A stretch of DNA of 64,000 nt from Deltaproteobacteria bacterium (GTDB lineage: Bacteria > Desulfobacterota > Desulfobacteria > Desulfobacterales > JAUWMJ01). Position numbers and translations under genes: made by a program. Below the pieces are notes generated by a model that saw nothing but the letters and a program-made list of their open reading frames with translations, was not told where the DNA came from and searched no databases. Shown here piece after piece: positions 22,575 through 22,644 of this stretch. Numbering within the stretch: position 1 is the stretch's first letter; each line of letters begins with the position of its first letter. The stretch lies in contig DAOWEJ010000014.1 of the NCBI GenBank assembly GCA_030638575.1, positions 5,041-69,040 on the forward strand, in the 5' to 3' direction.

Positions 22575-22644
22575 TTGATGAATTCGTAAAAAGTCTCATC
22601 TACCGCTACAACGCAGTAGATGAGACTTTTTACGACGCCATCAA
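22575..22644. repeat. Near-perfect 70-bp hairpin, archetype of the TGATG...CGTAAAAAGTC family
   Basis: ttgatgaattcgtaaaaagtctcatctac cgctacaacgc agtagatgagactttttacgacgccatcaa. Confidence 0.85.

Follow-up and report, generated by a model that had tools for sequence, protein, structure and literature searches.

Correia elements (CREE/NEMIS) of Neisseria are non-coding, intergenic repeats of approximately 100-150 bp that occur at high copy number, are bounded by inverted repeats, and are flanked by a 2-bp duplication in which the dinucleotide is a fixed TA. They fall into internal subtypes by length or sequence and form hairpins in the mRNAs with which they are transcribed, and we know of no cognate transposase that has been identified for them. 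REPs are palindromes of 20-40 nt carrying a conserved tetranucleotide at their 5' side; they are found on both sides of their RAYT gene and show no target duplication, and the Y1/HUH chemistry of IS200/IS605 elements and of RAYTs makes none. A 2-bp stagger is typical of serine recombinases, and to our knowledge neither IS607 nor IS110 elements have long terminal inverted repeats. IS30-family elements produce 2-bp duplications of variable sequence, use near-palindromic hot spots, and insert beside inverted repeats of their own (PMC9333248, PMC5821093). The flanks of IS30A in E. coli K-12 are AC/AC.

We analyzed a 64-kb stretch of DNA, referred to here as the window, and find that it carries a family of MITEs: small, non-coding elements in many copies, with inverted ends, a 2-bp duplication, and polymorphic occupancy among relatives. 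The family is real and abundant and, as far as the literature that we searched shows, previously undescribed; that search found the motif in no paper in a relevant context and no description of a Desulfobacterales MITE of this type. The ends read TTGAYG-N3-TCGTAAAAAGTC, and the window contains 13-16 of them where approximately 0.4 would be expected. When TCGTAAAAAGTC was searched for with at most one mismatch, 13 matches were obtained against an expectation of 0.36, and none of 100 shuffles attained 13. Allowing up to three to four substitutions in the fuller consensus TTGAYG-N3-TCGTAAAAAGTC yields about 15 credible ends, and an nhmmer profile search with a model built from 190 ends yields 16 at E<0.05. 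All of the window ends lie outside credible genes, in intergenic DNA. The elements and end remnants are as follows.

4215-4255, plus strand: minimal 41-bp element in which a full left end (the exact 21-mer; nhmmer E=3.5e-7) is joined to a truncated right end, TTTTTACGAGACTGTCA (E=0.04); it forms a short 9-bp hairpin.
4647-4790, plus strand: C-type element with a GT-rich core, its right end truncated at ...GATGAATTCGACTTTTTAC, with a tiny CCCGCC hairpin near 4754-4769; it matches C-type copies in loci L026, L091 and L103 at 75-82%.
9376-9416, plus strand: degenerate minimal element of the same form as that at 4215; the end has 2 mismatches (nhmmer E=0.002).
11873-12027, plus strand: compound element made up of an F-type hairpin (11875-12004, gcagcggtttttcag core) and a further right end (12007-12027), flanked by TG/TG; it begins 3 nt past the TAA of a LolA-like gene, ends at the ATG of the next ORF, is 100% identical over 101 nt to a copy in another species (L026), and has a DNA fold of -36.4 kcal/mol (z=-8.6).
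16661-16795, plus strand: B-type element (cgtaatcat core) with tiny hairpin insertions or replacements at 16678-16690 and 16750-16763, and with a right end that has fused with the element following it.
16808-16939, minus strand: F-type element whose end supplies, from its bases 2-4, the stop codon of phoU (TGA, 16936-16938).
22575-22644, no strand assigned: palindromised 70-bp element within the leader (5') region of an ArsR-family gene; AG is duplicated at 22573-22574 and 22645-22646 in the context AA-AG-[element]-AG-TT, and the DNA fold is -23.5 kcal/mol (z=-9.7).
25994-26148, plus strand: B-type element (25994-26122) with an extra outer end (26128-26148), flanked by AA-TA ... TA-TT; it is 93-96% identical to copies in other species (L004, L059, L015, L023).
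27135-27165, plus strand: partial left end with 3 mismatches (nhmmer E=0.019), 2 nt past the TGA stop of the gene at 26428-27132 and joined to an unrelated repeat of approximately 350 nt.
50683-50770, plus strand: left half of a C-type element (nhmmer E=2.6e-6), adjoining the stop codon of the minus-strand gene at 50771-53854.
57399-57595, plus strand: compound F-type element with a degenerate outer left end, a 15-nt linker and a hairpin at 57467-57595, set between TT/TT flanks; the ATG at 57621 begins 25 nt downstream, and the DNA fold of the element is -32.3 kcal/mol (z=-8.6).
61809-61835, minus strand: weak and doubtful end remnant with 3 mismatches (nhmmer E=3.6).

The first-pass annotation of this DNA had proposed a shared terminus and had allowed that it might prove too degenerate to align. 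The ends align very well, over 21 conserved positions. Of the positions at which that annotation placed elements, all have an end or a diverged inner end except 4769, where the element at 4647 has its truncated right end. The three copies of the gcagcggtttttcag core that it described are found at 11875-12004, 16808-16937 (98% complementary) and 57467-57593 (87%), and the two copies of the cgtaatcat core lie near 16692-16788 and at 25994-26122. The element at 22575 falls short of the perfect 70-bp hairpin that had been reported, having a 3x3 internal mismatch and one more mismatch. The mobile elements are modular and unusually dense, as had been proposed, but the statement that the family fills most intergenic regions was too strong: it is found in about 11 of the approximately 40 intergenic regions of at least 40 bp, and many of the remaining ones hold other, unrelated palindromic families.

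The window also contains a second MITE-like family with TAATACCTGAATTTTGCACGAGTCGGAGG ends, at 20830-21090 and 23140-23172. Arrays of 16-22-nt units of the type GAGCGYCCCTTCGGGRCTTGA form large palindromes at 186-470, 10070-10250 and 59060-59220, and a hairpin family of the form GAGACCTTTG(C/A)AAAA ... TTTTTCAAAGGTCTC is located at 2725-2972, 9340-9379, 29177-29362, 33069-33122 and 57214-57269. The repeat that adjoins the partial end at 27135 is a segment of approximately 350 nt that is duplicated at 87-97% identity (4781-5132 and 27158-27532), upstream of two minus-strand genes. It has a 69% match in L081 and no Rfam match, and it may represent a common leader or promoter, or else an uncharacterized RNA.

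The end is exactly 21 bp long and is bipartite. Across the 190 ends, positions 1-6 (TTGAYG) and 10-21 (TCGTAAAAAGTC) are nearly invariant, while positions 7-9 are free, being equal on the left and right in 8 of 96 pairs. The 21-bp end is not itself a palindrome, and the left-right symmetry of the elements breaks off exactly at position 22. This bipartite organization, with its free N3 and its sharp limit of symmetry, fits a protein-binding site better than a structural stem. Taking the window together with 118 loci from other species, we recovered 96 elements in which a plus-oriented end is followed by a minus-oriented end. These are 42-302 bp long (median 145, mode 137), and none encloses a gene or is long enough to do so. 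Because the loci from other species were collected with the exact AAT variant of the end as the seed, the end statistics are biased.

The exact 21-mer, TTGATGAATTCGTAAAAAGTC, is present in more than 118 contigs among the matches listed, and the first 80 matches listed place it in at least 55 other species-representative genomes. Among the matches listed, the hosts are nearly all Desulfobacterales or Thermodesulfobacteriota MAGs, in which the 21-mer is often located at contig ends. The elements have spread within a single sulfate-reducing lineage. Whole copies from the window are 93-100% identical to copies in other species, and their flanking DNA has no match. Only 3 matches were found in 2.9 million viral contigs, indicating that the family is not phage-borne, and a plasmid collection gave no match for a window element.

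The dinucleotides that flank an element on its two sides are identical in 55 of 95 elements, whereas 10,000 permutations of the right flanks yield 8.9 identities on average and never more than 21. The identity is seen at offset 0 only, and shifting the boundary by a single base removes it. The duplicated NN is variable, with 13 different dinucleotides among the 55 duplications; many of the 40 elements that lack a matching dinucleotide appear to be compound or degenerate. Outside the NN, A occupies flank position -4 in 166 of 190 ends and position -3 in 139, and the conserved context is TYAA-NN-[element]-NN-TTRA. Thus, the target is the palindrome TYAA-NN-TTRA, and insertion is accompanied by a 2-bp target-site duplication of NN. 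All four complete or compound elements in the window conform, with AG at 22575, TA at 25994-26148, TT at 57399-57595 and TG at 11873-12027. A CG duplication that we considered for the F-type copy at phoU was rejected, as the CG is part of a conserved composite.

The target palindrome mimics two abutted element ends. Since TTGA opens an element and TCAA closes it, each insertion remakes the target at both of its junctions, as can be read from the sequence. Four tandem pairs have the same NN at all three junctions (TC in L022, TT in L055, GA in L117 and AG in L052), and where ends meet head to head the sequence is a perfect palindrome. Collapsed junctions of this type may account for minimal forms such as that at 4215-4255 and for the fused junction at 16784-16795.

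We then compared the occupancy of orthologous sites, using PhoU homologs of 89-95% identity to identify orthologous pst-phoU-phoB loci. The phoU-phoB spacer is 310 nt long and filled with elements in the window, 1 nt long in L125, and 19 nt long in L121; it holds a different palindromic element in L119, L126 and L127 and a solo remnant in L120. The last codon and stop of window PhoU (CGT TGA) derive from the junction with an element end, and PhoU in L125 runs six codons further. The first-pass annotation was therefore correct in assigning the phoU stop codon to an element, as the TGA at 16936-16938 supplies bases 2-4 of the element end while the genes of relatives end in ...CTA TAG; the LolA-like gene ends in a TAA (11868-11870) that lies just ahead of another element. 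At the ArsR-family gene, a conserved promoter-like site (TTGACA-17-TATTAT, 22409-22437) lies upstream of the element at 22575, placing that element in the 5' leader of the gene. Three relatives (L129, L130 and L131) lack the element at this position. Removal of the element and one AG from the window restores exact colinearity with them, and the site in L131 reads CA-AG-TT. Across 90.8 kb of relatives that were picked regardless of the motif, we found 1 end, compared with 12-16 in the 64 kb of the window, a more than tenfold difference in density that indicates a lineage-specific expansion. Empty orthologous sites in close relatives identify the elements as mobile DNA rather than ancient static RNA. 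The presence/absence comparison thus bears out the proposal that these are mobile elements, as their positions are not static.

Other length differences occur at the same two loci. In the ArsR leader (window 22470-22570 compared with L131:1440-1500), approximately 68 nt between AAAATCAA and GTTAAGG are present in the window, L129 and L130 and missing in L131; this indel adjoins a conserved palindrome, ATCGTATATCTACGAT. In the pst genes, the pstS-pstC spacer of the window holds an insertion of approximately 256 bp with TAATACCTGAATTTTGCACGAGTCGGAGG ends that is flanked by a TAATA-like repeat and is absent from L125. The pstC-pstA spacer holds a palindromic element with GTTCACAGGTTCA(A/G)AGTTCAAGG arms (19682-19919) that is present in L119 and L125 and absent from L126, L120 and L121. 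A window-specific insertion of approximately 330 nt (18390-18710) separates the fourth and fifth pst genes (pstA-pstB), which are 12-16 nt apart in five relatives.

Between their conserved ends the elements are diverse, a crude clustering giving 37 core clusters among 92 elements. The first-pass annotation described the cores as interchangeable and the elements as nested. Core types A-G are almost never found without family ends nearby (36 of 39, 13 of 13, 7 of 8, etc.), which indicates that they are subfamilies and not independent elements nested in a shell; the B and F types of the window have extended arms in common and are related to each other. Nesting is borne out in two cases only: insertions placed end to end that fused later, and one very small unit, a CCCGC(C)-loop-(G)GCGGG hairpin of approximately 17-25 nt. 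Only 5 of 12 copies of this hairpin are near family ends, and it is present in some and absent from other, otherwise identical, copies of an element. Its independence and its variable presence in like copies amount to genuine nesting. In L033/L053 and L093 it occupies a homologous spot directly before AAGGCG. Its sites are as follows.

Window 16678-16690, 16750-16763 and approximately 4754-4769; also L033, L053, L093, L103, L044, L055 and L072: tiny CCCGCC hairpin.

The explanation that best accounts for the observed ends, duplication, target consensus, tandem junctions, empty orthologous sites and cross-species identity, and to which we assign a probability of roughly 0.8, is that of a MITE family that is moved by way of its 21-bp ends and makes a 2-bp duplication at a palindromic, end-mimicking target. 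A transposase would recognize the bipartite end (TTGAYG, three free bases, TCGTAAAAAGTC) and join the element into TYAA-NN-TTRA with cuts staggered by 2 bp, after which repair would duplicate NN. Because the target would be remade at the junctions, further copies could land end to end with the same NN between them. The resulting inverted junctions would be unstable palindromes that collapse by deletion, which would leave the window with its double ends, its solo ends and its fused, mosaic elements. The interior would have diversified into many hairpin-forming subfamilies because the ends alone are needed for movement.

We infer that the enzyme is a DDE transposase. A resemblance to the IS30 family in particular, the closest match in behavior, is a tentative proposal by analogy that may well be wrong. 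Several searches looked for the enzyme or for an autonomous parent element. No end pairs more than 400 bp apart are present in the 118 loci, and inspection of 81 unpaired ends revealed no autonomous parent. When weaker ends were paired at spacings of 500-4000 bp and NN was required to match, one candidate emerged, in L099; it encloses dnaA and no transposase. Recurrent ORFs near the elements are housekeeping genes only, with no transposase among them. A phmmer search with E. coli IS30 (InsI), IS5 and an rve-domain protein against 2,520 ORFs, drawn from 0.96 Mb of sampled loci, gave no match, and Pfam scans of the window ORFs detected no DDE transposase. Two other identities for the elements were considered and rejected. 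Integron attC sites do not apply, as the ends do not fit RYYYAAC/GTTRRRY, the neighbors are housekeeping genes, and a duplication is present; promoter elements do not apply either, as the TTGACG at the tip has no -10 partner.

One subfamily bears on a variant of this explanation. The A type, which is not represented in the window (an example is L022:5559-5695), has a core with two local 7-bp hairpins whose positions are 98.2% paired and show 27 double-sided changes, a result that 0 of 500 shuffles attain. The alternative long-hairpin pairing is 89.6% paired and has one pair broken in 16 of 24 sequences. This structural constraint falls outside the MITE model, in that simple double-stranded cut-and-paste does not require it, and the compensatory changes hint at a single-stranded stage or a host function. 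The family could be a hybrid between REP-like structured repeats and MITEs, in which an order-wide transposase, either of a new family or domesticated, prefers a target that mimics the abutted ends of its own elements while the cores are selected for single-strand folding. We regard this as improbable. If it were true, the life cycle would include a single-stranded DNA or RNA stage, or the hairpins would have a host function.

Strand exchange over a 2-bp core by a site-specific recombinase, either a serine recombinase or an IS110-like enzyme, would make NN a shared crossover core. The 2-bp stagger would suit a serine recombinase, the same NN recurs at all junctions of tandem arrays, and the palindromic target resembles joined ends. 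With 13 dinucleotides among the 55 duplications, however, donor and target cores would have to match each time; the long terminal inverted repeats have no known counterpart in IS607 or IS110 elements, and none of the genes seen near the elements encodes such a recombinase. We therefore consider a recombinase quite unlikely.

It could also be argued that selection has kept the elements as hairpins with a structural or regulatory use to the host (for instance mRNA stabilizers, attenuators, small RNAs or protein-binding sites) and that their likeness to transposons is incidental. The window elements are very stable hairpins, with z from -4.8 to -9.7, and lie in operons and leaders that must be transcribed; their end is conserved across an order; the local hairpins of the A type show compensatory changes; and in two of three reading frames, translation that runs into an end meets a stop within 15 nt. 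However, close relatives differ in the occupancy of orthologous sites and, by more than tenfold, in element density, and the target duplications mark insertion events rather than descent. The free N3 positions lack covariation in 88 of 96 pairs. Nor do the elements match any Rfam family: over the window, Rfam 15 gave a single match at gathering score, a TPP riboswitch elsewhere (36279-36387), and at E<=1 the elements matched only microRNA-precursor models, with 24-34 bits compared with cut-offs of 74-117. Selection as host hairpins is accordingly very improbable as the origin of the family. Within the MITE explanation, strong folding together with transcription in operons and leaders makes side effects on expression likely, and the host may later have put some elements to use (exaptation).

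The first-pass annotation named a RAYT-like protein encoded in the window as the one to assay for binding or cleavage of the elements.

43755-44729, minus strand: RAYT-like gene with a Y1_Tnp domain and a DnaA C-terminal helix-turn-helix.

On the corresponding reading, the elements would be REP/REPIN-like sequences that this Y1 transposase moves as single-stranded hairpins. The protein retains the HUH motif and the catalytic Tyr, has weak similarity to E. coli TnpA_REP (4er8), and scores 71.5 bits against the NCBIfam model REP_Tyr_transpos, under the cut-off of 80. The elements are strong hairpins, and the A-type cores have compensatory changes. However, no family ends flank the gene in the window. 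It is bracketed instead by inverted hairpins of its own (GGGTCAAGTCTAC..TTGACCC upstream and GGGTCAA..GTAGACTTGACCCC downstream), which are located at 44767-44779 and, in degenerate form, at 43746-43758, and which are kept in 12 of the 14 homologous (metagenomic) loci that were checked. The window contains no other copies of the GGGTCAAGTCTAC hairpin save one match with 2 mismatches (33026-33038), which is within chance expectation. The gene and its hairpins (43746-44800) form a self-contained unit. Around 80 RAYT-like homologs, only 3 family ends are present in 284.5 kb, although all three lie within approximately 200 nt of the gene. What the elements conserve is a non-palindromic 21-bp end, and they have a 2-bp duplication, which Y1/HUH enzymes such as those of IS200/IS605 and RAYTs do not make. 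Given the gene's own flanking hairpins, the scarcity of family ends around its homologs and the 2-bp duplication, we reject it as the likely mobilizer and consider this reading very improbable.

Other genes in this part of the window include a HEPN/nucleotidyltransferase pair at 41389-42107, a 1082-aa LRR-Roc-COR protein at 45132-48380 whose LRRs are encoded by 66-nt tandem repeats (47200-48159), and a TIR-domain protein at 49024-50397.

If the MITE explanation is correct, the identical 21-mer in at least 55 species would make its end sequence one of the most broadly distributed so far observed for bacterial MITEs, and the family would follow a clean and testable insertion rule. Its insertions rewrite gene ends, as at the phoU stop codon, and 5' leaders, as at the ArsR-family gene. 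They would also be part of the reason that the genomes and MAGs of these sulfate reducers are rich in palindromes between genes and fragment in assembly. The 21-bp end and the TCAA-NN-TTGA target could serve as bait for the responsible transposase. No new kind of system would be revealed, as this is a further family of a well-known kind of element, the MITE.

Among known systems, the family behaves like IS30 and ISApl1, which also have a variable 2-bp duplication, inverted repeats of 20-30 bp, near-palindromic T/A-rich hot spots and end-to-end insertion (PMC9333248, PMC5821093). The likeness is one of behavior only, since the end sequence is unrelated to that of IS30 and no IS30-like transposase with family ends was found. 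With REPs and BIMEs the family shares dense extragenic palindromes arranged in mosaics, together with a RAYT-like gene in the window; it differs in that the conserved unit is a 21-bp non-palindromic end with a duplication and in that the RAYT-like gene has other hairpins. The tiny CCCGCC hairpin, which is a side feature of the MITE family and not the family itself, may be comparable with the small nested repeats known as cyanobacterial SDRs and with the dRS3/NIME mosaics of Neisseria. The A-type hairpin, ATTCCSG-N6-CSGGAAT, has a weak blast match to an N. gonorrhoeae record and resembles the dRS3 type of Neisseria. Correia elements, as they are described, are similar in being small and non-coding, with terminal inverted repeats of 21-26 bp, a 2-bp duplication and no cognate transposase identified. 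Whereas their duplicated dinucleotide is a fixed TA, here NN can be any dinucleotide within AANNTT, and whereas they are confined to one genus, here one end is common to many core subfamilies and to at least 55 species of an order.
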